Part shown: piece after piece, positions 4,493 to 35,132 of the stretch
Layout: the number at the start of each line of letters is the position of its first letter
Position numbering within the stretch: the stretch's first letter is position 1
DNA from: a virus
Direction: 5' to 3' (one strand)
Length of the DNA: 41,511 bases
Virus record (IMG/VR): IMGVR_UViG_3300045988_044506
Translations under genes and position numbers: made by a program
The notes under the pieces: generated by a model
What the model saw: the letters and a program-made list of their open reading frames with translations, nothing else
What the model was told of the DNA's origin: nothing
The model's database searches: none

Positions 4493-4885
4493 ATGAACAA
4501 ACTACAAATTACAATGACCACGGAACAGGCGCGTATCATTAAAGTTGCACTGGAGGAGTACTTCCGCGCCCCGCTTGGACAGTGGCGCGACCTTGCTGAC
4601 CGGCTGGCGTTCCGCGGCTTTGACTGGGACAACCACACAGACGAGGAGCTTGACAAACGGTGTGAGAAGAAAGAATACGCCCTATACGCATTTGATGCGG
4701 CTGGAAACATCGTGATGGACAGAACCGGAACTATCCCGCGCCCAACCGATGAGGCGATTGCGTCAGATATGTGGCGCATTCTGAGGCAGTGGCTGATGGC
4801 AAAAGAGATGCGGCAGGACATCCCGCTGGACACATACCACGAGAGCGACGAACCGCCTATCAAGGTGGAGGAGCTATCAGAATGA
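4493..4885 (+). CDS. Hypothetical protein (130 aa)
   Basis: ATG 8 nt after a GAGG-like RBS. Acidic C-terminus. Confidence 0.55.
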   Translation: MNKLQITMTTEQARIIKVALEEYFRAPLGQWRDLADRLAFRGFDWDNHTDEELDKRCEKKEYALYAFDAAGNIVMDRTGTIPRPTDEAIASDMWRILRQWLMAKEMRQDIPLDTYHESDEPPIKVEELSE

Positions 4886-5079
4886 CACTGGAAAACAAAA
4901 AAGAGCTTGTGCGGCTTTTGCACCTGTACATGGCTGATATTATGCGGCAGGATTCGGTTGAGAAAAGAAACCGCTCCCTTGCGATGCATGTTGGGATTAA
5001 AAGCCAGTTTGACCACGCACGAATCATCGTAAACAAGCTGGAGCGCGAGCTTTCAACCGGACTTTTTACGAATGGATGA
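4882..5079 (+). CDS. Hypothetical small protein (65 aa)
   Basis: GAGGAG RBS, and its ATG overlaps the upstream stop. The ATG is the internal start of ORF 4771..5079. Confidence 0.5.
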   Translation: MTLENKKELVRLLHLYMADIMRQDSVEKRNRSLAMHVGIKSQFDHARIIVNKLERELSTGLFTNG

Positions 5080-5190
5080 CGAATTGCACTTGAACTTGAA
5101 TTTCGTCACCAGAAATGGCGGTATTCGGATAGGGCGAGAGAATGAGTTCAACTTTTCAGCCCTATAAAGTGAAACTGAAGGAGGTAAAAC

Positions 5191-5346
5191 ATGGATGATC
5201 TGAAACCCTGCCCGTTTTGCGGATGCGTACCGATAATTCAATGGGCGCGATATGTGTGCAAAAAACGCAGTTATGCTGGACGGAAGAGAAGTAGGGCTTC
5301 GTGCGACCGGCAAAGACGAGTTTTGCAGTTACGGGAGGTGAAATAA
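5191..5346 (+). CDS. Small zinc-ribbon protein, possibly a Lar-like restriction alleviation protein (51 aa)
   Basis: Strong RBS GAAGGAGG. N-terminus MDDLKPCPFCG matches the Lar-family start. Below the ORF-track size cutoff. The C-terminus is unusually basic, and an A6 run at 5261-5266 could hide a frameshift. Confidence 0.35.
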   Translation: MDDLKPCPFCGCVPIIQWARYVCKKRSYAGRKRSRASCDRQRRVLQLREVK

Positions 5347-5745
5347 ATGGCCCAATACCTTGAACGGTCAACCGCAATCGACATTGCTATCAGCGCAGAA
5401 GACGTGCATCCGTACAAAGTGGTTGGACAGCTGGAAACCTACAGCGACTACAATCAGGGGTGGAGCGATGCTTGCGGTTATATCAGCGAGTTGTTTGAGA
5501 CTGCGCCGACGATAGATGTGCTTGCCGTGACAAGTGATAAGCTGGTCGGAAGCGGGGCAACTGAGCTTGCACCGATGTTGCGCGGCAAGTGGATTTTGCG
5601 GCACATAGGATGCGTACATTTTTTTGAGTGCTCTGTGTGCCATGCCACTCCTATTTACGGCACGAAGAACACAAAGTTTTGTCAAAACTGCGGGGCAAGG
5701 ATGGATGAGGAGGATGATTCGAGTGATCCTGATTTGGTTGACTAA
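5347..5745 (+). CDS. Hypothetical protein with a C-terminal zinc ribbon (CSVCH...CQNCG)
   Basis: GGGAGGTG RBS and ATG at 5347. Confidence 0.55.
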   Translation: MAQYLERSTAIDIAISAEDVHPYKVVGQLETYSDYNQGWSDACGYISELFETAPTIDVLAVTSDKLVGSGATELAPMLRGKWILRHIGCVHFFECSVCHATPIYGTKNTKFCQNCGARMDEEDDSSDPDLVD

Positions 5746-5989
5746 CTTTGCATTTGCCGTTGGCGGCATGATTATCGGAATCCTCCTGACAGCCTGCATC
5801 GTTGCGGCGGACTGGCACGAGAAGCCCCGGAGACACCGGGGGTGGTGGATTGAGGACGAACAGGGCAATATGCACTGCACTAGGTGTAATTGCAACATCA
5901 CATTCTCTAATTCTGAATCAAGCGATTACTGCCCGTGTTGTGGCGCGGAGATGAAGGGGGTTCGAAACAGTGGAAATTGTGATTCCTGA
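5714..5989 (+). CDS. Small membrane protein with one TM helix and a C-terminal zinc ribbon
   Basis: ATG at 5714 after GGATGAGGAGG. Hydrophobic segment LIWLTNFAFAVGGMIIGILLTACIVAA. Motifs CTRCNC...CPCCG. Confidence 0.45.
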   Translation: MIRVILIWLTNFAFAVGGMIIGILLTACIVAADWHEKPRRHRGWWIEDEQGNMHCTRCNCNITFSNSESSDYCPCCGAEMKGVRNSGNCDS

Positions 5990-22788: not shown

Positions 22789-24831
22789 ATGCCGGACAAG
22801 ATCGTCCACACAATACACTTGGATCGGTACGCGCCTATGCCCGCCCAGATCCAGCTTGGTACAGTCGAGAGCTATGGCGTTGAGCAGATTGCCGTTGTCG
22901 CCGGTGCCGGTTGGGACGGGCTTGACATTGTAGCGGTGTATCATCCGCCCAAAGCGGCGGAGCCGGTGCGTGTGCTCGTGCCGTCAGACGGCCTGTCTGA
23001 TGTGCCCCCGGAGGCGACTGCGTCTGCTGGCCGTGGTGCGCTTGTGATCGCAGGTATGGCGGACGGTGTGCAGATTGCATCCTGCAATATCGCCTATACG
23101 GTGATTGCGCAGGCTGGCACAGACGGCACAACCAGCGACGCGCCAACGCCTGATCTGGTGCAGCAGATCTTGTCTGCCGCGAATGGTGCAGTCAAGACCG
23201 CCGATGGAGTCCGGGCGGACATGGACAAGGTGCTGGAGGCGGAGTCCGGACGGAAAACCGCCGAAGCCGACCGGGCGGCAGCGGAGTCTGAGCGCGTCAC
23301 GGCTGAGACGGCCAGAGCGGAGGCAGAGGCTGACCGCGCCGCCGCTGAAAAGGAGAGGCAAACCGCAGAAAGCGCCCGTATTGCCGCCGAGAATGACCGT
23401 CAGAGCGCGGAGACGGCCCGGGCAAAAGTGGAAACAGCCCGCGAAAGTGCTGAAACTGACCGGGCAACCGCAGAATCCGCCCGCGTTGAGGCGGAAGCGG
23501 AGCGCGCCGATGACGAAAGGTTACGAAAAGATCACGAAACCCAGCGCGTTACCGATGAGAACGCCCGTCAGACTGCCGAGTCCAAGCGGCAAGAGGCCGA
23601 AACAGCCAGAGCTGACGCAGAATCCAAACGCGCTGACGCAGAGCAGTCCCGTGTCAAGGCTGAAACTGATCGTGTGACCTCTGAGACGGCCAGAAAAGAC
23701 GCTGAATCCGAGCGTGCCAGCGCCGAGCAGGAGCGGCAGACGGCAGAGGAGGGGCGTGTAGAAGCCGAATCCTCCCGAGTGAAAGCAGAAGCGGAGCGCG
23801 AAAAGCAGCTGCCTGCGCTTTCTCACTCCGTGGACGAACTGCGCGCCAGACAGAATATCCTTGTCGGCAGTGAGACCGGCAATCCGGTCGCCGTTGACGA
23901 TGCTTTTGCCGCCCCCCTGTGCGGCCTGACCATATACGGCAAGAGCACGCAGGACGGGACGCCGACACCAGATGCGCCTGTACCTATCGTGAGCGCTGGT
24001 GACGGGGGGAGCGTGGCGGTGAAGGTGACGGGGAGGAATCTGGTTTACACGCATGAGTATCAATCTTTTTTCATCAACACAAACGGGTCGCTGGTTGGTT
24101 TAGCCGATGGGAATACATCAATCGTCTTGCAAGTACCCACAGAAGCTGAATACTACGTCACACGGAAGGCTGTCGGAACCAAGTTTAGAGTTGCGGTTGT
24201 CGATAAACTACCTCAATATGGTCATCCTGTTGCCCCGTCCAACAGTGTTTGCAAGGACTCAGCGCGGCAGATAAAAATTTTGACAACGGCCAAATATATG
24301 ATTATACAATGCGAGGCCGAATCTGCTTTTGACGAGTTAATGGTATCATTAGATTTGTCAACCACCTACTCCCCCTACCGCGAACAGATCCTCACACTTT
24401 CCACTCCCAACGGCTTACCCGGCATCCCTGTCACCTCTGGCGGCAACTACACTGACCAAAACGGCCAGCAGTGGGTGTGCGACGAGGTGGATTTGGCAGG
24501 AGAGGTTATGGTGCAGAGGATTGATAAGGCGGCTCTCGACGACACAAAACCGCTTGCCGAACAAAATGCGACGCTCTCAACCCCCATCGAAACACCACTC
24601 ACCGCTGATGAGATCGCCGCATACAAAGCCCTCACCGCTTACGGCCCTGACACTGTGGTGCAGGCCAGCGACGGCGCTGGCATCAAGCTGGACTACCAGC
24701 GGGACGTAAATCTCGTCGTCAAAAATCTTGAGGACGACATTGCAGAGATCGAGGCGTTGGCACAGGCATATTACGACGCGCTGGACGCCGCATCCGCATC
24801 CGCGCCAGCAAAAGAGGAGGAATCCAAATGA
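22789..24831 (+). CDS. Tail fiber protein with a central Ala/Glu/Arg-rich coiled-coil repeat and a C-terminal globular domain
   Basis: 680 aa. About 16 imperfect 11-residue repeats (TAESARxEAEAxR). Confidence 0.65.
   Translation: MPDKIVHTIHLDRYAPMPAQIQLGTVESYGVEQIAVVAGAGWDGLDIVAVYHPPKAAEPVRVLVPSDGLSDVPPEATASAGRGALVIAGMADGVQIASCNIAYTVIAQAGTDGTTSDAPTPDLVQQILSAANGAVKTADGVRADMDKVLEAESGRKTAEADRAAAESERVTAETARAEAEADRAAAEKERQTAESARIAAENDRQSAETARAKVETARESAETDRATAESARVEAEAERADDERLRKDHETQRVTDENARQTAESKRQEAETARADAESKRADAEQSRVKAETDRVTSETARKDAESERASAEQERQTAEEGRVEAESSRVKAEAEREKQLPALSHSVDELRARQNILVGSETGNPVAVDDAFAAPLCGLTIYGKSTQDGTPTPDAPVPIVSAGDGGSVAVKVTGRNLVYTHEYQSFFINTNGSLVGLADGNTSIVLQVPTEAEYYVTRKAVGTKFRVAVVDKLPQYGHPVAPSNSVCKDSARQIKILTTAKYMIIQCEAESAFDELMVSLDLSTTYSPYREQILTLSTPNGLPGIPVTSGGNYTDQNGQQWVCDEVDLAGEVMVQRIDKAALDDTKPLAEQNATLSTPIETPLTADEIAAYKALTAYGPDTVVQASDGAGIKLDYQRDVNLVVKNLEDDIAEIEALAQAYYDALDAASASAPAKEEESK
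23240..23800 (+). repeat. Imperfect 33-bp tandem repeats encoding the coiled-coil segment
   Basis: Read directly from the protein periodicity. Confidence 0.6.
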
Positions 24832-25055: not shown

Positions 25056-25955
25056 ATGAGCGTAACCATTGGCCACGCATCTATTGACGAGCGCGGCAAG
25101 GCTTCCGGCGGCAGAGCCGGTGACCAGACCGGGGGCGAAGTCTGCACCCGCAGCTGGTACAACAAAGGCTGGAAATACTGCCTGCGACCCAAGTCTGCCA
25201 GTGTGGCGGAGCGCATGGCGAAAGCCTGCGAACAGGGCTGTGCAAACAACAAAATCGGTTATGACCAGAGCCAGCGCAACGCCCTGCATTACTACGCAAA
25301 GCGGTGCGGCTATAATCTGGCCATTATCAACACCAAATGCGAGACGGACTGCTCTGCATTTATGACGGTTTGTGCCCTCGCTGGCGGTGTCTCCGCACTG
25401 GAGTACAACGGCAATGCACCCACCACCAGAACGATGGTGGACAAGTTCCGTGCGACAGGTGCGTTTACCGTGCTGACGGACGACAAATACCTGACCGGCG
25501 ACGCCTATCTCAAGCGAGGTGACATTCTCGTTAAGCCGGGTAGTCACACCGTCATGGTGCTTTCCAACGGCTCCAAAGCAAGTGCGACGCCTACGCCTTC
25601 CGCTGCTCCTACGCCCGGCAAGCTGACCGTAGACGGACAAATCGGGAAAGGCACCATCAAGGCGTTTCAGCAGCTTCTGGGCACTGCGGCTGACGGCTAC
25701 ATTTCCGGCCAGTCCGCATCTTGCAAAAAGTATTGGCCTGCGATTTGCAATTCCGCTTGCGGCTGGACTGGCGGCAAGTCTCAGTTTGTGGCCGCAATGC
25801 AGTCCGCCGTCGGCACGTCTGCTGATGGTCTGCTGGGCAGGGGTACCGCAAAGGCGTTGCAGTCCTTCCTGTGCGGCGAGGGGTTCCCATGCTCTGTTGA
25901 CGGCGTATTTGGCGCAGAGTCCGCAAAAGCGCTTCAGCGCTGGCTTAACGCATGA
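25056..25955 (+). CDS. Endolysin: NlpC/P60-like cysteine peptidase domain plus two C-terminal peptidoglycan-binding repeats
   Basis: Motifs DCSAF (Cys) and GSHTVMV (His) about 50 aa apart. PG_binding-like repeats DGxxGxGTxKAxQ. AAGGAGG RBS. Confidence 0.8.
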   Translation: MSVTIGHASIDERGKASGGRAGDQTGGEVCTRSWYNKGWKYCLRPKSASVAERMAKACEQGCANNKIGYDQSQRNALHYYAKRCGYNLAIINTKCETDCSAFMTVCALAGGVSALEYNGNAPTTRTMVDKFRATGAFTVLTDDKYLTGDAYLKRGDILVKPGSHTVMVLSNGSKASATPTPSAAPTPGKLTVDGQIGKGTIKAFQQLLGTAADGYISGQSASCKKYWPAICNSACGWTGGKSQFVAAMQSAVGTSADGLLGRGTAKALQSFLCGEGFPCSVDGVFGAESAKALQRWLNA

Positions 25956-26254
25956 CCGACGCTGTTCTTGCCGAAACCCGGCTTAAAATCATCCGCATCC
26001 TGCTGGACGCGCTGAACGAACTTGACCCTAATCCGGCGGACGTAAAGCGTCGCCTGAAACGGATTGCACGGTCTTATGACCTCGCAGAGCTGATTGAGTC
26101 CGCGAACCTGGATGACGTCACAAAGGACATCTTGCACAGGCGCTTTTGCAAACATCAGGATTATGCCACGATTGCCGATTGGGTCGGCTATTCTGAGCGC
26201 ACGATCCGGGCAAAAGTTGACGATGCAATGCCTATCTTAACCAATTTAATTTAG
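25952..26254 (+). CDS. Sigma-70 region-4-like HTH protein
   Basis: HTH-like segment ILHRRFCKHQDYATIADWVGYSERTIRAKV. Confidence 0.5.
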   Translation: MTDAVLAETRLKIIRILLDALNELDPNPADVKRRLKRIARSYDLAELIESANLDDVTKDILHRRFCKHQDYATIADWVGYSERTIRAKVDDAMPILTNLI

Positions 26255-26266
26255 TTTCCTCCTTTT

Positions 26267-26303
26267 GGGCGGTGAGCTTCGGCTTGCCGCCCTTTATTTT
26301 TTT
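26267..26303 (+). terminator. Rho-independent terminator (GGGCGG...CCGCCC followed by a T-run)
   Basis: Read directly. Confidence 0.55.
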
Positions 26304-26353
26304 GCCAATATTGGCAAATTATACTTTACAATGTGCCAATATTGGCTTATAAT
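26301..26353 (+). promoter_or_regulatory. Operator-controlled sigma-A promoter: TTTACA-17-TATAAT with two palindromic operators sharing the core GCCAATATTGGC
   Basis: Perfect 18-bp palindrome TTTGCCAATATTGGCAAA at 26301..26318, just upstream of the -35 (26325..26330). Palindrome GCCAATATTGGC at 26335..26346 lies in the spacer; -10 at 26348..26353. Palindrome centres are 31 bp apart. Confidence 0.7.
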
Positions 26354-26383
26354 ATAGATAACAAAACAAAGGAGGCCACGATT

Positions 26384-26899
26384 ATGCCCACACAGATTTG
26401 CAATTATATCAACGATGCCCCCGCGCCGGACATAGGAATTAGCTATGTCCCCGAAGATGTGGCTGCGCTCGGACTGATCGGCACGGAAAAGCAAATTGCT
26501 TATGCGAGAGACTTGATCTCCAATTATTACCGTGTAATCGAGTTTACGGCCTACAACATCTATTCCCACCGCGACGGCAAGGTTTTGAAGCGGGTCAAGA
26601 AAGATGGAACCACCCTGATTTCCCGGAATACTAAGGATTATACCGAATCCGACCTGCTCGAGCTGCGAAAGTATATCACCCATCAGATCATTAACAATGA
26701 AAAGTTGCATGATGCATCCATCATCATCGACAAATTCCGCCGTATGTGCGAAGATTCCGCACGCAGAGAGGCAAGAGACATCCACCTAGCTGGGGCGGTG
26801 TTCAGCGCCAAACACGGCTGCATGGTCAACTCGGAAACGTCCGAGCCTGTGTCTCTCATCGGGCGGAACGTCGGTCAGATTTCCACAAAATTCGATTGA
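26384..26899 (+). CDS. Hypothetical 171-aa protein, first gene of the operator-controlled cassette. Candidate anti-defence or lysogenic-conversion effector.
   Basis: AAAGGAGG RBS 7 nt before the ATG. No recognisable motifs. Confidence 0.6.
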   Translation: MPTQICNYINDAPAPDIGISYVPEDVAALGLIGTEKQIAYARDLISNYYRVIEFTAYNIYSHRDGKVLKRVKKDGTTLISRNTKDYTESDLLELRKYITHQIINNEKLHDASIIIDKFRRMCEDSARREARDIHLAGAVFSAKHGCMVNSETSEPVSLIGRNVGQISTKFD

Positions 26900-26919
26900 T
26901 GCGGAAGTGAGGGGCAAAA

Positions 26920-27216
26920 ATGGAAATCAATGAGCAACTGGTATTGAGCGCCTACAATAGGCGAAAATCAATCAAGGCAACTGCGCGGGAATTGGGAATC
27001 TCCGAAGGCGTTGTGCGTAAGCACCTGATCGGCGCGGGCGTTGTGGAGACTGCAACGACCCGCAGGATCGCGGAACTCCGTGCGGCAGGAATGCCGCTCA
27101 AAGATATAGCGGAGCTACTCGGAGTTTCCAGCTCCTCCGTTTCGGTCAACACGCCCTATCAAAAGGGCAGTTATCTCACCGCGAACAAAACATATAACGC
27201 TATCAAGATTAGGTAA
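26920..27216 (+). CDS. Small tandem-HTH DNA-binding protein (98 aa)
   Basis: Two HTH-like segments: SIKATARELGISEGVVRKHL and PLKDIAELLGVSSSSV. Confidence 0.6.
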   Translation: MEINEQLVLSAYNRRKSIKATARELGISEGVVRKHLIGAGVVETATTRRIAELRAAGMPLKDIAELLGVSSSSVSVNTPYQKGSYLTANKTYNAIKIR

Positions 27217-27251
27217 TGCAGAGAGCGCAAACGCGCAGAAGGAGAGAAAAA

Positions 27252-27731
27252 ATGAAATCCATCCAGCTGTATCGAATCTACGGGACGCTAGGGCATGAAC
27301 TGCAACCGGTATACGCCGATGCAGAATGCTGCCCGCCTGAAAACCCGTATGAGCTGATTGAGGTAGACCTCCCCAAAGGTTGGGAAGCGTACAAAAATGC
27401 ACTCGGAGAGACTTTGATCGAAAGCCCGGACGGAACGGTTTATCTTGTCGGCGACTGTATCAAAGCGGTTTCCGATAACCCCGTTCTCGCCTGGCACGAC
27501 GAGACAGACCATACCACCGCGCTGAAATGGCGATATAAGAACAATAATGTCCGCGAAATCCGCAATCGGTGCGGGTTAACGCTGCAAGAGCTTTCCGACC
27601 GAACCGGCGTCAACATCCGCCAAATCACGAAACTCGAACAGGGCGAAATCAATATTGAGAATATCACCGCAAAAAATCTAATGGCGCTGGCCGAAGGGCT
27701 AGGAGTAGCCCCGCAGGATCTGTTCTTGTAA
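27252..27731 (+). CDS. XRE-family regulator with an N-terminal domain of unknown function and a C-terminal HTH
   Basis: C-terminal segment IRNRCGLTLQELSDRTGVNIRQITKLEQGE matches HTH_XRE. GAAGGAGAG RBS. Confidence 0.7.
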   Translation: MKSIQLYRIYGTLGHELQPVYADAECCPPENPYELIEVDLPKGWEAYKNALGETLIESPDGTVYLVGDCIKAVSDNPVLAWHDETDHTTALKWRYKNNNVREIRNRCGLTLQELSDRTGVNIRQITKLEQGEINIENITAKNLMALAEGLGVAPQDLFL

Positions 27732-27744
27732 CATTTTCTTCTTA

Positions 27745-27789
27745 CCCGCTGAATCCGATAAAAACGGATTTGGCGGGTTTATTTTTTTA
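27745..27789 (+). terminator. Rho-independent terminator (ACCCGCTGAATCCG-loop-CGGATTTGGCGGGT followed by a T-run)
   Basis: Read directly. Confidence 0.7.
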
Positions 27790-27819
27790 CCCCCTCGAAA
27801 TCGAGGGGGTATTTTTTTT
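27790..27819 (+). terminator. Rho-independent terminator (CCCCCTCGA-aa-TCGAGGGGG followed by T8)
   Basis: Read directly. Forms a tandem pair with the previous terminator. Confidence 0.8.
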
Positions 27820-31408: not shown

Positions 31409-32479
31409 TTACAGCGTAGCAGAATCGTAGCATCTCTCCAAAATTGAGCACAGATCGTCCCGTTTGGATTTATAAAGATGGGAGTAAACGCGGAGTGTTA
31501 CAGTCACATTTTCGTGGCCTAAACGCTCTGCTATGAGCAGTGGCTGCACCCCCTGGTCTATCAGCATCGACGCGTGAGAATGTCGGAGATCATGCACCCT
31601 GATGATCGGCACACCTGCCTTAACGCAGTTGCGCTTGCAGTGGTTGCGGAGCATAGACGCGCTTGCACCCTCGAATAGCCTACCGCCTGACATTGTGGCG
31701 ATAAGCGGGGCTAATTCCTCCTGCAAAAAGTGTGGGATTGATACAACTCTGACGGAGCTTCCAGTTTTAGGCACTCCGATAATTTCTTCTCCGTTCAGCT
31801 TTATGTAGGTTTTGGTAATGGATATTTTACCGTCGCTCACATCCTCTGGTGCAAGCGCCAGCAACTCGCCCTCACGCATACCCGTCCAAAACAATGTATC
31901 GAAAGCAACCTTCATAAGCTCGTTTTGCTCACAAGCACAGAATTTGGCATACTCCTGCACGGTCAGAAATTTCATTTCTCGCTTTTTTTCATTTCTCTTT
32001 TCGGCGACTGCGTTTGTGCATGGATTTGACGGCAGTCCATATAACCGGACAGCAAAGTTAAAAATGCTCGATAACCTCGATTTCAACATAGCGGTCGTCG
32101 TTTGAGATAGTTTCCCTCCGGTTATGCGCGATTTCCGGTTTTGCAGATCGCTATACCACTTGCGTACAGCCAGTGGCGTGACGTCTTGCACTGCGGTTTT
32201 TCCAAACGCTGGGCGCAAACTCTTTTCTACCGCGAATACGATGGACGAGTATGTCGTAGGCTTTACCCTTGTCTTTGCGTCCTCGAGATACAGATCAAGC
32301 AGCGACGACATTGACATTGATAGACTGCCATTCATCTTTTGCAAAAATTCGCGCTCGTACTGCTGGGCTTCTCGTTTTGTTGGAAAGCCCTCTTTTTTCT
32401 TTTGTTTTCGCGTCCCGTCAAAGGTAGTATATCTACAGGTCACCTTCCAACGCCCGTCCGGCATTTTCGATACGCTCAT
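31409..32479 (-). CDS. int: Tyrosine integrase (phage integrase family with an N-terminal arm-binding domain)
   Basis: Motifs HDLRHSHAS ... LGHENVTVTLRVYSHL (the R-H-R-Y catalytic pattern). N-terminal PDGRWKV...FPTKREA AP2-like domain. Confidence 0.92.
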   Translation of the reverse strand: MSVSKMPDGRWKVTCRYTTFDGTRKQKKKEGFPTKREAQQYEREFLQKMNGSLSMSMSSLLDLYLEDAKTRVKPTTYSSIVFAVEKSLRPAFGKTAVQDVTPLAVRKWYSDLQNRKSRITGGKLSQTTTAMLKSRLSSIFNFAVRLYGLPSNPCTNAVAEKRNEKKREMKFLTVQEYAKFCACEQNELMKVAFDTLFWTGMREGELLALAPEDVSDGKISITKTYIKLNGEEIIGVPKTGSSVRVVSIPHFLQEELAPLIATMSGGRLFEGASASMLRNHCKRNCVKAGVPIIRVHDLRHSHASMLIDQGVQPLLIAERLGHENVTVTLRVYSHLYKSKRDDLCSILERCYDSATL

Positions 32480-33075
32480 AACTTATGCACCACCGATGTT
32501 GTATAACTCGCCTTACCGTCCATGACGGCCGCACGACCTTTGCGCAGGCCGTCTCGGAAAGTCTCCACATCTGGCATGACGCGGTCTGTGCTGACCAGTA
32601 GGCCGTTCGCGCTGGCTGTCTCGTACAGGGTGTCAATCAGGGATGCGACCGCCAGACGCATTGTCATGGGGAGGTGATCTAACATCACAAATTCTTCAGA
32701 CTGAGCGCCGATGTTGGAGCCGTGTTCGCCAAACACTAAAAAATCGAATTTTCGCACGGCGCGGTCCGATGCGACATTGCCTATATAGTGTAGCGCTGCA
32801 CGGCGCAGCTCGTCGATGCTGCTATTCCGCGTGAGCGTGTACACATCCGGGTAAAGATACTCCAGCACGGAGGTCAGGGCGTCAACGCTAAATAGGTCAA
32901 ACCACGAGATAAACTCATCGACGCGAGGAGCTGTCTGCCCGGACTCGTACTTGTCCCACGTCCTCAAATCTACACCGATCATCTCGGCCATTTTATACTT
33001 CGGTAGGCCGGTTCGCGCTCTCAATTTTTGTAGCACAAGAGCACATCCACTTCGTAATTCTTCCCTCGTTCTCAT
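32476..33075 (-). CDS. XRE-family transcriptional regulator co-transcribed with int (ATGA overlap)
   Basis: N-terminal HTH segment LRARTGLPKYKMAEMIGVDLRTWDKYESGQ. AAGGAG RBS. Confidence 0.7.
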   Translation of the reverse strand: MRTREELRSGCALVLQKLRARTGLPKYKMAEMIGVDLRTWDKYESGQTAPRVDEFISWFDLFSVDALTSVLEYLYPDVYTLTRNSSIDELRRAALHYIGNVASDRAVRKFDFLVFGEHGSNIGAQSEEFVMLDHLPMTMRLAVASLIDTLYETASANGLLVSTDRVMPDVETFRDGLRKGRAAVMDGKASYTTSVVHKL

Positions 33076-34308: not shown

Positions 34309-34608
34309 TCATCGGAAGAAAAGCCCCAGAACGGACGCCAGAGCCGCAACAGCGGCTATTCCAGCGGTGATCCTAAAGCGCCGCGTTTGAATACGCTTTT
34401 CTTCAAGCTCCTTCAAACGATCTTCTCCATATCCGGTAATAAGCGCTCGCTCCTGACCCTTTAGCGGGCCTTTCTGAGCGATGCCGAGGGAATGGATAAG
34501 GTTCTCGTTCAAGAGGATGGATGCATTCTTACGGTTCTTTTCGGTGATCTGCAAACCATTTTCTGACTGGCTTTTTAGCAGCAGTCGATATTCCGTTGAC
34601 TGTCTCAT
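34309..34608 (-). CDS. C-tail-anchored membrane protein co-transcribed with the repressor. Candidate superinfection-exclusion protein.
   Basis: C-terminal TM segment ITAGIAAVAALASVLGLFF. Its start overlaps the repressor stop. Confidence 0.5.
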   Translation of the reverse strand: MRQSTEYRLLLKSQSENGLQITEKNRKNASILLNENLIHSLGIAQKGPLKGQERALITGYGEDRLKELEEKRIQTRRFRITAGIAAVAALASVLGLFFR

Positions 34609-35132
34609 TTCTCACCCACAACTGCATCAACAACAGCCAGAATGCGCCGTCTATCTTCCTCAGACGCATTCTCATACCGCTCGACCAAGCGCTTTGCGCC
34701 ATCACTCAAACCGTCGCCCTTCGGGGCGGCGGTTTTTTTGTCGTTTCCGCTCAGTCCCATGAGGTAGTCGGGCGATACCCCAAAGTAATCTGAAATTTTT
34801 CTGATTGTTGTATCTCTCGGGGTTCTCCCCGCAGCCCAGCCAGTAACTGCCGCGCTTGTGCATCCTATTGCGAGAGCAACGGAATTGGGCGTGTCCCCGT
34901 TTTGAGAGCAAAGGTAACACAGATTTCGATAAAAAATACTTGGCTCAAAATCGCTCAGGTCATCCGGGTCAACATTGAAATAGTTCGCTATTTTGTAAAT
35001 TGTTTTGCTTCTTGGATTTGCCCCGTTCTTCCACTGAGTAACGGAAGCTGGAGAAATGCCAAGCTCAGTTACAACCGCGGTAGGGGATTTGCTATTTTTG
35101 ATACACAAGGCCGTAAATCTATCCCAAAACAT
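34605..35132 (-). CDS. cI-like lysogeny repressor with two tandem XRE-type HTH domains
   Basis: Two HTH_XRE-like segments. Divergent from the early promoter region. Confidence 0.75.
   Translation of the reverse strand: MFWDRFTALCIKNSKSPTAVVTELGISPASVTQWKNGANPRSKTIYKIANYFNVDPDDLSDFEPSIFYRNLCYLCSQNGDTPNSVALAIGCTSAAVTGWAAGRTPRDTTIRKISDYFGVSPDYLMGLSGNDKKTAAPKGDGLSDGAKRLVERYENASEEDRRRILAVVDAVVGEK

Follow-up and report, generated by a model that had tools for sequence, protein, structure and literature searches.

To our knowledge, hardly any anti-defence or other conflict genes are known from phages that infect strictly anaerobic gut Firmicutes, because the products of such genes lack recognisable homologues. 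The window analysed here, a 41,511-nucleotide stretch of viral DNA (IMG/VR record IMGVR_UViG_3300045988_044506), contains a three-gene cassette with its own promoter between the lysis genes and int, and poses the question of how such a unit is controlled and what it does for its phage. A preliminary description, made from the sequence alone, had compared it with acr-aca loci. In such loci, for example acrIF1-aca1 of JBD30 and acrIF8-aca2 of ZF40, Aca proteins with a helix-turn-helix (HTH) repress the acr promoter through inverted repeats. Our analysis suggests that the region is probably a moron, an accessory operon that is transcribed autonomously, regulates itself negatively and carries an exchangeable, anti-defence-like payload. 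The mechanism of an autoregulated accessory cassette is very likely; an anti-defence function specifically is possible, though short of probable.

An insulated transcription unit in a variable slot

The source phage is a temperate, Chenonceau-like siphovirus of Oscillospiraceae-type gut Clostridia. As first described, the cassette lies downstream of the endolysin gene and upstream of the integrase gene; its immediate neighbours are a 100-aa gene that follows the endolysin gene on one side and a 49-aa gene and the phrog_3754 block on the other. The features discussed below are these.

25056-25955, endolysin gene, upstream of the cassette
26267-26292, plus strand, upstream intrinsic terminator: an 11-pair stem with 8 G-C pairs, then the T-run TTTATTTTTT (to 26302)
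26301-26318, operator O1, TTTGCCAATATTGGCAAA: an 18-bp perfect palindrome centred at about -50.5 from the predicted transcription start
26325-26330, plus strand, -35 hexamer TTTACA
26335-26346, operator O2, GCCAATATTGGC: in the promoter spacer, centred at about -19.5
26348-26353, plus strand, -10 hexamer TATAAT
26368-26375, plus strand, ribosome-binding site AAAGGAGG, read from the sequence, 8 nt before the ORF1 ATG and kept in relatives
26384-26899, plus strand, ORF1, 171 aa: candidate payload, an orphan soluble helical protein
26920-27216, plus strand, ORF2, 98 aa: a basic (pI 10) tandem-HTH protein
27252-27731, plus strand, ORF3, 159 aa: putative autorepressor with two domains
27252-27536, N-domain of ORF3 (residues 1-95), acidic and all-beta
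27549-27722, XRE/Cro-C1 HTH of ORF3 (residues 100-157; HTH_3, E 5e-10)
27744-27778, plus strand, first downstream intrinsic terminator: 14 pairs, T-run to 27788
27788-27811, plus strand, second downstream intrinsic terminator: 10 pairs, 7 of them G-C, then TTTTTTTT (T-run to 27819)
31409-32479, minus strand, integrase gene, downstream of the cassette
about 31.4-35.1 kb, main lysogeny module (int and repressors), separate from the cassette
32476-33075 and 34605-35132, the phage's HTH repressors

The promoter, TTTACA-17-TATAAT, matches the consensus at 11 of 12 positions with a 17-nt spacer, ranks best among only 3 promoter-like sites in 7.5 kb (shuffled sequences gave 6.1) and is predicted to leave a leader of only about 24 nt. 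O1 is the longest perfect palindrome in the window, and together with O2 it accounts for two of the only six perfect even palindromes of at least 12 bp found there. Both share the GCCAATATTGGC core, and these are the only two places within the 41.5 kb at which the exact 12-mer occurs. The combination of promoter and palindromes is far beyond chance. This bears out the earlier report of a near-consensus promoter with two palindrome copies, with some amendments: all its elements exist, but the implied positions needed one-base corrections; O1, said to abut the -35 hexamer, is separated from it by 6 bp; and the second palindrome, said to fill the spacer, does lie inside it but covers 12 of its 17 bases. 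The two centres, put at about three helical turns apart, are separated by 31 bp. A literature search for the operator sequences found no phage context, and Rfam gave nothing above gathering thresholds, its sub-threshold miRNA-like matches merely reflecting the palindromes.

Terminators bound the unit on both sides. The upstream one is kept in relatives, even in a phage that lacks the cassette (L109); it closes the late (lysis) operon and insulates the cassette from upstream read-through. Downstream, the two back-to-back terminators of the preliminary description were both found, each with a T-run. The first of them is part of the slot boundary: where the cassette is turned round or missing, it keeps its place beside the 49-aa gene. 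In L006 it lies across from the cassette, which is inverted there, and in L109 it directly adjoins an O1 remnant.

That junction is the scar in an otherwise close relative, since the flanking proteins of L109 are 96-100% identical and only the cassette is missing. A different cassette, of acidic cargo plus an HTH gene, occupies the same slot in L110, and in L006, L013, L014 and about 40 other loci the cassette sits in the slot in inverted orientation. The slot is a conflict hot spot that other conflict modules occupy in related phages; in Chenonceau, the nearest cultured relative, the post-lysis region holds a SocA/Panacea-domain module of toxin-antitoxin (TA) type. The earlier suggestion of a moron is well founded, as this is an insulated unit that is absent from one near-identical phage and replaced in another. 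Like morons of the HK97 gene 15 type, it has its own promoter and terminator, lies between conserved genes and is present, absent or replaced among relatives (PMC3594210). Its G+C content (0.495) is lower than that of the flanking late genes (0.57-0.60), which may be a further resemblance, though the window as a whole averages only 0.53. It differs from such morons in apparently having a dedicated autorepressor and in belonging to a family that shares one control module.

One control module with many cargoes

We found the pattern TTKACA-N4-GCYAATATTRGC-N-TATAAT in 87 contigs of viruses and in several loci from metagenomes; chance alone should give about 0.003 matches, a figure that is our own estimate from the pattern information and an assumed collection size and not the result of a tool. 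The comparison set that we used comprises about 100 loci, many of them near-duplicates from one IMG/VR dataset, with crude gene calling. The position and sequence class of O2 (GCYAATATTRGC) are invariant over 100 loci with differing cargo, and in 32 of 100 related loci the spacer operator is preceded, at a distance of exactly 31 bp, by a second operator that differs in sequence. An HTH of ORF3's subtype is encoded among the first four genes in 74 loci. Compared across loci, promoter, spacer operator and HTH subtype form a reusable control module in phages of gut Clostridia, and the cultured Flavonifractor phage Cormatin carries it. Genome contigs scanned with the ORF3 alignment and for the DNA pattern yielded nothing in either case, and the region had no blastn match among 50,697 phage records.

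The genes upstream of this HTH vary widely. They fall into 20 clusters, about 15 of them credible, and encode small, soluble proteins without enzymatic or membrane domains, many of them strongly acidic (pI 4.0-4.7); a Pfam search of ten representatives returned no family. Regulators and cargo also occur in various combinations. A single 93-aa regulator family accompanies at least ten unrelated cargo families. The ORF3-type N-domain, conserved over its full length at 32-50% identity, has three unrelated upstream partners, namely ORF1, a 257-aa Zn-ribbon protein and a 159-aa acidic protein, and the ORF1-related cargo c18 is in turn accompanied by the unrelated 93-aa regulator. The N-terminal domains of the regulators are themselves exchangeable (among them a beta domain and a Cys-rich knuckle), and the L015 protein instead combines the HTH with a C-terminal domain. 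This is what the acr-aca model proposed for the locus predicts of its genome neighbourhood: homologues of the ORF3 HTH, under the same promoter and operator, follow many unrelated small genes and not one fixed partner.

ORF3 as the most likely autorepressor

Two of the three proteins contain an HTH, and the preliminary description left open which of them would be the trailing autoregulator. Comparison across loci supports such a regulator well and favours ORF3. As described, its XRE HTH is C-terminal to a further domain; an AlphaFold2 model (pLDDT 78) consists of a beta N-domain and a five-helix HTH, the lambda-repressor-like fold that defines the XRE/Cro-C1 superfamily. The closest PDB sequence matches of ORF3 are CapH-NTD, C.AhdI and C.BclI, and no Aca protein is among its matches at E <=0.1, a search that covers the Aca families with solved structures. 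The N-domain also stands alone, as a 96-aa protein encoded among the early accessory genes of the Mu-like Clostridium phage Villandry.

ORF2 is a different matter. Its two HTH stretches (residues 7-36 and 49-75, of HTH_23 (E 1.8e-9) and Sigma70_r4 types) agree with the tandem-HTH protein reported before, but the 98-aa form is a truncation: a CAA>TAA nonsense change has shortened ORF2 of the window, and its relatives have 111 aa and overlap the start of ORF3. ORF2 is found solely in the window-type cassette, types B-F lacking it, and tblastn against cultured phages (50,697 phage records) gave no match. We disfavour it as the operator-binding autoregulator because it is missing from every other cassette that keeps the operator; in the L006 cassette, which has no ORF2, the regulator is an ORF3 homologue. 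ORF2 may serve as a further payload, or else as an auxiliary regulator.

Operators and HTH domains also vary together. At the position aligning with Gln33 of the 434 repressor, Lys is present in 15/15 loci with GCC..GGC operators and Arg in 51/51 loci with GCT..AGC operators, a covariation that is partly confounded by shared ancestry. The switch occurs within the ORF3-type architecture as well (L041 has Arg with GCT) and in four further N-terminal architectures. Arg is, however, also found with hybrid operators (GCCAATATTAGC). Lys or Arg matched to C or T at operator position 3 would be a plain rule of specificity for these repressors that lends itself to testing; if the rule holds, the ORF3 substitution K128R is expected to move the preference from GCCAATATTGGC to GCTAATATTAGC. 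Because of this covariation, the comparison across loci and the swapping of cassettes, the autorepressor is most likely ORF3, and ORF1, perhaps with ORF2, the exchangeable payload.

A probable orphan payload

ORF1 had been described as a 171-aa protein with no recognisable motif, and searches of Pfam, PHROG, NCBIfam and PADLOC indeed found no family at a significant E-value. Only 10 homologues turned up in 5.8 billion clusters. Of 1.84 billion representatives just 2 matched, and a profile search of these representatives recovered its own two clusters and nothing else. A profile search of PDB sequences gave noise alone, and neither Foldseek against BFVD nor tblastn against the 50,697 phage records produced a match. 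No housekeeping homologue emerged from this remote-homology search. The AlphaFold2 model is helical (pLDDT 68), the protein has no transmembrane segment and a pI of about 7, and its core (residues ~32-59 and 84-121) carries a GTEKQIAYARDLI motif. ORF1 is distantly related to c18, a cargo family of 89 aa (hhalign 93.6%, E 2e-7).

All three genes are under purifying selection (dN/dS against relatives 0.06-0.28), with values of 0.20-0.28 for ORF1, 0.07-0.09 for ORF2 and 0.06-0.08 for ORF3, so that the payload value is 3-4 times that of the regulators. In the divergent L006, homologues of ORF1 and ORF3 (40% and 50% identity) are still paired, their stop and start codons overlapping by 4 nt, and this pairing could reflect functional coupling beyond regulation.

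Proposed mechanism and function

We propose that the strong sigma-70-type promoter would fire in the absence of repressor, as in a naive cell that the phage has just entered, and transcribe ORF1, ORF2 and ORF3. Once ORF3 has built up, its XRE HTH would bind GCCAATATTGGC at O2, presumably in dimeric form, and block RNA polymerase. A second dimer could occupy O1, 31 bp or three helical turns upstream on the same face of the DNA, probably cooperatively and with a sharper shut-off as the result. Expression would rise in an early burst and then settle at a low level that the cassette itself limits, with the flanking terminators keeping the cassette independent of the late operon.

The payload, ORF1 and maybe ORF2, would most likely inhibit a function of the host or of a competitor, because payloads of this family are small, soluble, orphan, subject to rapid turnover and often very acidic and the slot holds other conflict modules; the cassette would then be an anti-defence-like unit that follows acr-aca logic. 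The earlier acr-aca reading is sound in its regulatory design and variable cargo, but the anti-CRISPR or anti-defence label goes beyond the direct evidence: neither the cargo nor the regulators match any Acr, Aca or anti-defence family or structure in our searches, which for Aca covered the families of solved structure. An anti-defence function is our inference, as no payload is linked by homology to any defence or anti-defence system. Moreover, at 171 aa and a pI of about 7, ORF1 is not a typical small acidic Acr, which counts against that identity.

The space between lysis genes and attachment site is a classical place for genes of lysogenic conversion, defence and TA systems. Payload products might instead protect the lysogen, ORF1 with or without ORF2 excluding other phages or mobile elements and ORF3 setting a steady low level, as negative autoregulation would also suit. 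A moron with promoter and terminator between the lysis genes and int is a classical site of genes expressed from repressed prophages (PMC3594210). The Panacea-domain, TA-like module in the Chenonceau slot also fits such a role, as do weak PADLOC matches of ORF3, over the HTH only, to controller and CapH-type defence regulators. No payload, however, fits any PADLOC defence model, ORF1 has no transmembrane segment, and small, soluble, often extremely acidic cargo suits inhibitors better than defence effectors or membrane superinfection-exclusion proteins. We therefore regard a prophage defence or superinfection-exclusion module as rather unlikely, if a serious candidate.

The preliminary description had also offered a TA-like or abortive-infection module. 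In a reverse-order type II pair, as in MqsRA, HigBA and HicAB, ORF1 would be the toxin and ORF3 an antitoxin whose N-domain neutralises it and whose HTH autorepresses. The locus resembles those systems in placing a payload before a two-domain protein with a C-terminal XRE HTH, behind a palindromic promoter that we read as autoregulated; the ORF3 HTH has weak matches, over the HTH only, to MqsA and HipB-type antitoxins in NCBIfam, and the ORF1 and ORF3 homologues remain neighbours in L006. In those systems, however, neutralising domain and partner vary together, whereas the regulator domains here, the 93-aa family included, pair with unrelated cargo, and this makes the TA reading improbable. 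In addition, ORF1 matches no toxin family or fold, ORF2 sits between the supposed partners in the window, and the N-domain is also free-standing in Villandry.

In P22 immI, the antirepressor gene ant is controlled by Mnt and Arc. A comparable secondary immunity module, in which ORF1 would counter the phage's or a rival's repressor under the control of ORF2 and ORF3, would account for one effector with two DNA-binding proteins, a strong promoter overlapped by operators and a location outside the main lysogeny module. We consider it very improbable, as ORF1 has no Ant, KilA-C or Bro-type domain, ORF2 is missing from all other cassette types, and a near-identical phage (L109) has no cassette at all; nor would a core decision circuit be expected to give way to unrelated cargo elsewhere. 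A restriction-modification controller unit was rejected, there being no methyltransferase or endonuclease domain in ORF1, ORF2 or neighbouring genes, and so was the main lysogeny switch, for which the window has a separate module of int and repressors.

Comparison with known autoregulated systems

The preferred reading, an autoregulated accessory operon with an anti-defence-like payload, shares its logic with acr-aca loci, in which an HTH protein autorepresses through inverted repeats in the promoter (PMC13551039). Variable small effector genes precede a conserved HTH gene in one operon, ORF3 being the last gene; inverted-repeat operators, here in two copies, lie in a strong promoter; expression is proposed to follow a burst and then a shut-off; and the regulator can serve as a guilt-by-association marker. 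The differences are equally clear. The associated genes include no validated anti-CRISPR or homologue of one, and ORF3 has no sequence relation to Aca proteins of solved structure. The regulators here have exchangeable N-terminal domains, even the DNA of promoter and operator stays conserved from one cargo type to the next, and the cassette occupies a post-lysis slot in either orientation.

The acr promoters of Listeria phages, with their AcrIIA1 palindrome, are a second point of comparison (bioRxiv 10.1101/787200). These too belong to temperate siphophages of Firmicutes and have a conserved palindrome between or near the -35 and -10 hexamers, and repression is needed as self-limitation only (bioRxiv 10.1101/787200). 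AcrIIA1 is bifunctional, its HTH autorepressor domain being joined to an effector domain; ORF3 and the L015 protein likewise combine an HTH with a second domain, but the domain order is reversed in ORF3, and an effector role of the ORF3 N-domain is conjecture. Tentatively, we suggest that the promoter, the GCYAATATTRGC operator and the XRE HTH might constitute an undescribed Aca-like regulator family and flag an island of anti-defence genes in temperate phages from gut Oscillospiraceae and Clostridia, Cormatin among them; that ORF1, c18 and about 15 more orphan cargo families might be new inhibitors of bacterial immune systems; and that the acidic beta N-domain of ORF3 might act as an effector joined to the repressor that controls it, the arrangement of AcrIIA1 and AcrIIA15. 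We hold this extended proposal to be doubtful as a whole.

C proteins such as C.AhdI and C.BclI bind two palindromic operators in their own promoter and exert feedback control. Two palindromic operators are likewise present in the promoter studied here, but their centres are 31 bp apart whereas C-boxes are adjacent, and no restriction-modification genes accompany them. Because one operator lies inside the promoter spacer, repression only is expected, unlike with C proteins.

The conserved 29-bp promoter-operator signature, a recognisable HTH subtype and a defined slot together provide a handle on about 100 cassettes with at least 15 orphan payload families. Should the payloads be ordinary lysogenic-conversion genes, the cassettes would still be a well-defined case of modular, self-limiting moron expression. 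Experiments are feasible because one cassette lies in Cormatin, an inducible prophage that is in culture and belongs to the OMM12 model community.

Setting and control region

The window is the genome of a temperate siphovirus. By portal protein (69% identity), its nearest cultured relative is Chenonceau, a Flavonifractor phage that resides as an inducible prophage in the OMM12 strain F. plautii. The integrase and the HTH repressor candidates are encoded on the minus strand.

Landmarks of the window and control elements of the three-gene cassette. Control elements were located by sequence reading, the upstream terminator also by a terminator scan.
8887: large terminase
10138: SPP1-type portal
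25056-25955: ELLD endolysin, downstream of the tail genes and ahead of the cassette
26267-26292: upstream terminator, followed by a T-run
26301-26318: operator O1, perfect 18-bp palindrome TTTGCCAATATTGGCAAA
26325-26330: -35 element TTTACA
26335-26346: operator O2, GCCAATATTGGC, within the 17-nt spacer
26348-26353: -10 element TATAAT
26368-26375: AAAGGAGG ahead of ORF1, whose ATG is at 26384
After the cassette: block of small genes (49-aa gene, phrog_3754 and others)
31409-32479: integrase

The promoter, paired palindromes and three reading frames of the preliminary description were confirmed by sequence reading, a consensus scan, palindrome and 12-mer counts, and family searches. In the consensus scan the cassette promoter scores 11/12, and promoter-like sites within 7.5 kb number only three, below shuffled sequence; the same scan recovered terminators on the flanks of the cassette. 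The 12-mer common to O1 and O2 has two exact copies in the window, both at this promoter, and O1 is the longest of only six perfect palindromes of at least 12 bp. The two operators are 31 bp apart, centre to centre.

Proteins of the cassette

ORF1 (171 aa) has no family in Pfam, PHROGs, NCBIfam or PADLOC. Its own family is tiny, with ten matches among 5.8 billion clusters and, in a profile search, only two representatives among 1.84 billion; structure prediction gives a helical protein whose insert and tail are disordered (pLDDT 68). It is distantly related to c18, an 89-aa cargo family (hhalign 93.6%, E 2e-7) whose partner is a different, 93-aa HTH regulator. Compared with their relatives, all three genes show purifying selection: dN/dS is 0.06-0.09 in both HTH genes and 0.20-0.28 in ORF1.

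ORF2 (98 aa) has two HTH stretches and may act as an auxiliary regulator or be a further, DNA-binding payload. In the window a CAA-to-TAA change places its stop at 27214-27216, so that the last 13 codons of the relatives' version are gone; the change also abolishes the 4-nt overlap with the ORF3 start that is present in relatives.

ORF3 (159 aa) carries an HTH_3 domain at residues 100-157, preceded by an acidic, beta-rich N-domain. This N-domain is an independent evolutionary unit. The Mu-like Clostridium phage Villandry encodes a 96-aa protein that consists of a homologous domain alone, in its early accessory region and near a PAPS reductase gene. The Villandry protein (WAK79658.1 in ON453902.1; L106, 3501-3791) is 35% identical (hhalign 99.3%) and is encoded two genes upstream of the reductase.

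A family of cassettes with a shared control signature

All eight close ORF1 homologues sit in this three-gene cassette, at the same place. The single distant homologue (locus L006; 40% identity, 139 aa) has an ORF3 homologue directly downstream of it, without ORF2, in a unit that is inverted relative to the flanking genes it shares with the window. At loci L007-L011, ORF3 homologues with 50% identity stand behind the same promoter and spacer operator as in the window, and are preceded by an unrelated 257-aa Zn-ribbon protein (BLASTP E = 1) and followed by a 132-aa protein.

Scanning with the exact pattern TTTACA-N4-GCCAATATTGGC-N-TATAAT recovered further types: L013 and L014, inverted in the slot (the position between the lysis genes and the 49-aa gene/phrog_3754 block), encode an 85-aa protein, a multi-Zn-ribbon protein and a short XRE protein, whereas L015 has just one gene, whose product joins an XRE HTH at its N-terminus to a C-terminal domain. 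In L015 (1437-3158), this cassette is followed by an IS200/IS605-type tnpB and tnpA pair (genes read by eye), which places the control module outside the usual phage slot as well. A protein search with the HTH alone led to L017, whose promoter, TTGACA-aca-CGCTAATATTAGCG-TATAAT, is likewise accompanied by another site exactly 31 bp upstream. The degenerate pattern TTKACA-N4-GCYAATATTRGC-N-TATAAT matched 87 viral contigs, against a chance expectation of about 0.003 matches by our own estimate from the pattern information and an assumed collection size rather than from tool output. Two genome-collection scans found nothing. The cultured Flavonifractor phage Cormatin has a cassette of a 115-aa protein, a 164-aa 'transcriptional regulator' and a 136-aa protein, with both operators present.

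The gene between promoter and HTH gene, the cargo, is highly variable. By our own crude gene calling, an HTH of this subtype falls within the first four genes at 74 loci; many retrieved loci are near-duplicates from one IMG/VR dataset, and the meaningful numbers are distinct cargo clusters and distinct HTH lineages. Our clustering of these approximate gene calls gave 20 cargo clusters ahead of the HTH; about 15 are credible, while a few with short, basic products probably stem from reading in the wrong frame. Cargo proteins span 70-257 aa, and extreme acidity is frequent among them (pI 4.0-4.7, net charge -6 to -22). Ten representatives matched no Pfam family and, in PHROGs, only entries of 'unknown function' or, once, a ParB-N-like one; none of three matched PDB sequences. 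The preliminary description had proposed to look for variable small genes beside homologues of the HTH genes, and the pattern found, in which the regulator is conserved and the small cargo proteins are hypervariable orphans and often acidic, is the guilt-by-association signature.

Several elements recur in these cassettes, the first two of them absent from the window. A protein with repeated CxxC...CxxC zinc ribbons (136-201 aa; sole Pfam signal a weak DZR match) follows the HTH gene in many (L029 g3, L027 g3, L034 g4, L041 g3) and precedes it in L013 (1216-1830). In most cassettes with the 93-aa regulator (L023, L027, L029, L065 and others), a leader located 5-45 nt downstream of the -10, ...caagagaGGGGaacaCCCCgGGAGG..., is conserved; it is a short hairpin that abuts the RBS and is kept across unrelated first genes, and it might serve for RNA-level control in the manner described for Aca2 and Aca1. 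Cassettes without O1 (L023, L030, L070 and others) carry TTTGGTCA two or three times as direct repeats, some 25-50 nt ahead of the -35, where another factor may bind.

Candidate operator-binding protein

ORF2 is confined to the window-type cassette, whereas an XRE HTH of one subtype, with the motif G-[VIL]-N-x-R-x-[IL]-x-[KR]-[LIVY]-E-x-G-E, is present in every cassette type. The ninth motif position is Lys in 15 of 15 loci with a GCC..GGC operator and Arg in all 51 with GCT..AGC; four hybrid operators all go with Arg. The association holds across different protein architectures, and in both directions. Among ORF3-type proteins, those of the window and L007 combine Lys with GCC, and that of L041 combines Arg with GCT. 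In other architectures, Lys with GCC recurs in the short L013 type and in the L015 and L058 types; the 93-aa and 144-150-aa types show Arg with GCT. In our alignment this position corresponds to Gln33 of the 434 repressor, which contacts bases in repressor-operator crystal structures. From this covariation, partly confounded by shared ancestry, and from the restricted distribution of ORF2, we infer that ORF3 binds the operator. A second operator at 31-bp spacing occurs at 32 of 100 loci with differing sequences, so the phasing appears to matter, and cooperative binding on one helix face would be its simplest reading.

Mechanism and function

An autoregulated accessory cassette is probably what these features describe, and self-limiting expression is the best-supported model: the strong promoter would give a burst while ORF3 is absent, after which ORF3 would shut it through O2 and O1. 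As an operator lies inside the spacer, repression would act by occlusion of RNA polymerase, and as the repressor gene is within the operon, the result would be negative autoregulation. Such burst-then-closure designs are documented for acr-aca operons (PMC13551039) and for the AcrIIA1 locus of Listeria phages (bioRxiv 10.1101/787200).

The resemblance to an acr-aca operon in the preliminary description holds for the way the cassette would work and for its regulator/cargo pattern, but no gene associated with it matched a known Acr in the family and PDB searches. ORF3 shows no detectable relation to those Aca proteins whose structures are solved, and the HTH proteins closest to it are CapH-NTD and the controllers of R-M systems. 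We therefore do not class it as acr-aca, and rate it a putatively HTH-autorepressed accessory or anti-defence-type operon. A literature search found no paper with either operator sequence in a phage context. The additional value lies in the shared promoter-operator signature, which exposes a whole cassette family in gut Clostridia phages.

The payload could tentatively be assigned to anti-defence or host interference; that it instead serves prophage-encoded defence or exclusion seems rather unlikely. The toxin-antitoxin-like module first offered as an alternative is improbable for three reasons: the ORF3 N-domain has three unrelated partners, a different regulator partners an ORF1 relative, and one regulator family serves at least ten unrelated cargo families. 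An antirepressor-type module is the least credible reading.

An exchangeable slot

Four observations mark the slot as a hot spot at which dispensable modules related to genetic conflict can be exchanged. At about 40 loci a cassette abuts the window's phrog_3754 block in divergent orientation. In L109 (IMGVR_UViG_3300045988_040655), with flanking proteins 96-100% identical to the window's, the cassette is absent: at ~4800-4970, corresponding to window 26324-27745, a short CTT(T)A microhomology marks the junction at which the downstream terminator directly follows the upstream terminator and what remains of O1, CCAATATTGGCAAATTACACTTTA. This clean deletion scar shows that the cassette is dispensable. 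L110 (IMGVR_UViG_3300045988_062634, 4800-5800), with equally similar flanks, holds a different two-gene cassette encoding a very acidic 89-aa protein and a 118-aa protein with a C-terminal HTH_31/HTH_3, under its own promoter (TTTACG...TATTTG) with a different spacer palindrome, CCGCACAATGTGTGG. Finally, the post-lysis region of Chenonceau (ON453904.1; L107, 7649-8671, minus strand) encodes a SocA/Panacea-domain protein (PF13274, E 7.5e-20) adjoining a 114-aa membrane protein with a hydrophobic C-terminal half, a pair that looks like a PanA-type toxin-antitoxin module. With its own promoter and terminators, and its presence in some close relatives but not in others, the cassette fits the definition of a moron (PMC3594210).

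In all relatives the slot is bounded on the left by a gene translationally coupled to the endolysin gene (window 25952-26254); its conserved 100-aa product has a weak sigma-70 region-4-like HTH (Pfam E 0.008; phrog_36/248 regulators). Between this gene and the cassette's upstream terminator, L003 (7540-7870), L004 and L005 carry an extra ~330 bp, absent from the window and L001, with its own terminator-like hairpin and no obvious ORF. Further upstream, at 22789-24831, a region of unusually high G+C (0.62-0.65) encodes a 680-aa tail-fibre-like protein with a long degenerate Ala/Glu/Arg-rich repeat run (AE(T/S)AR..AE..R), predicted to form a coiled coil.
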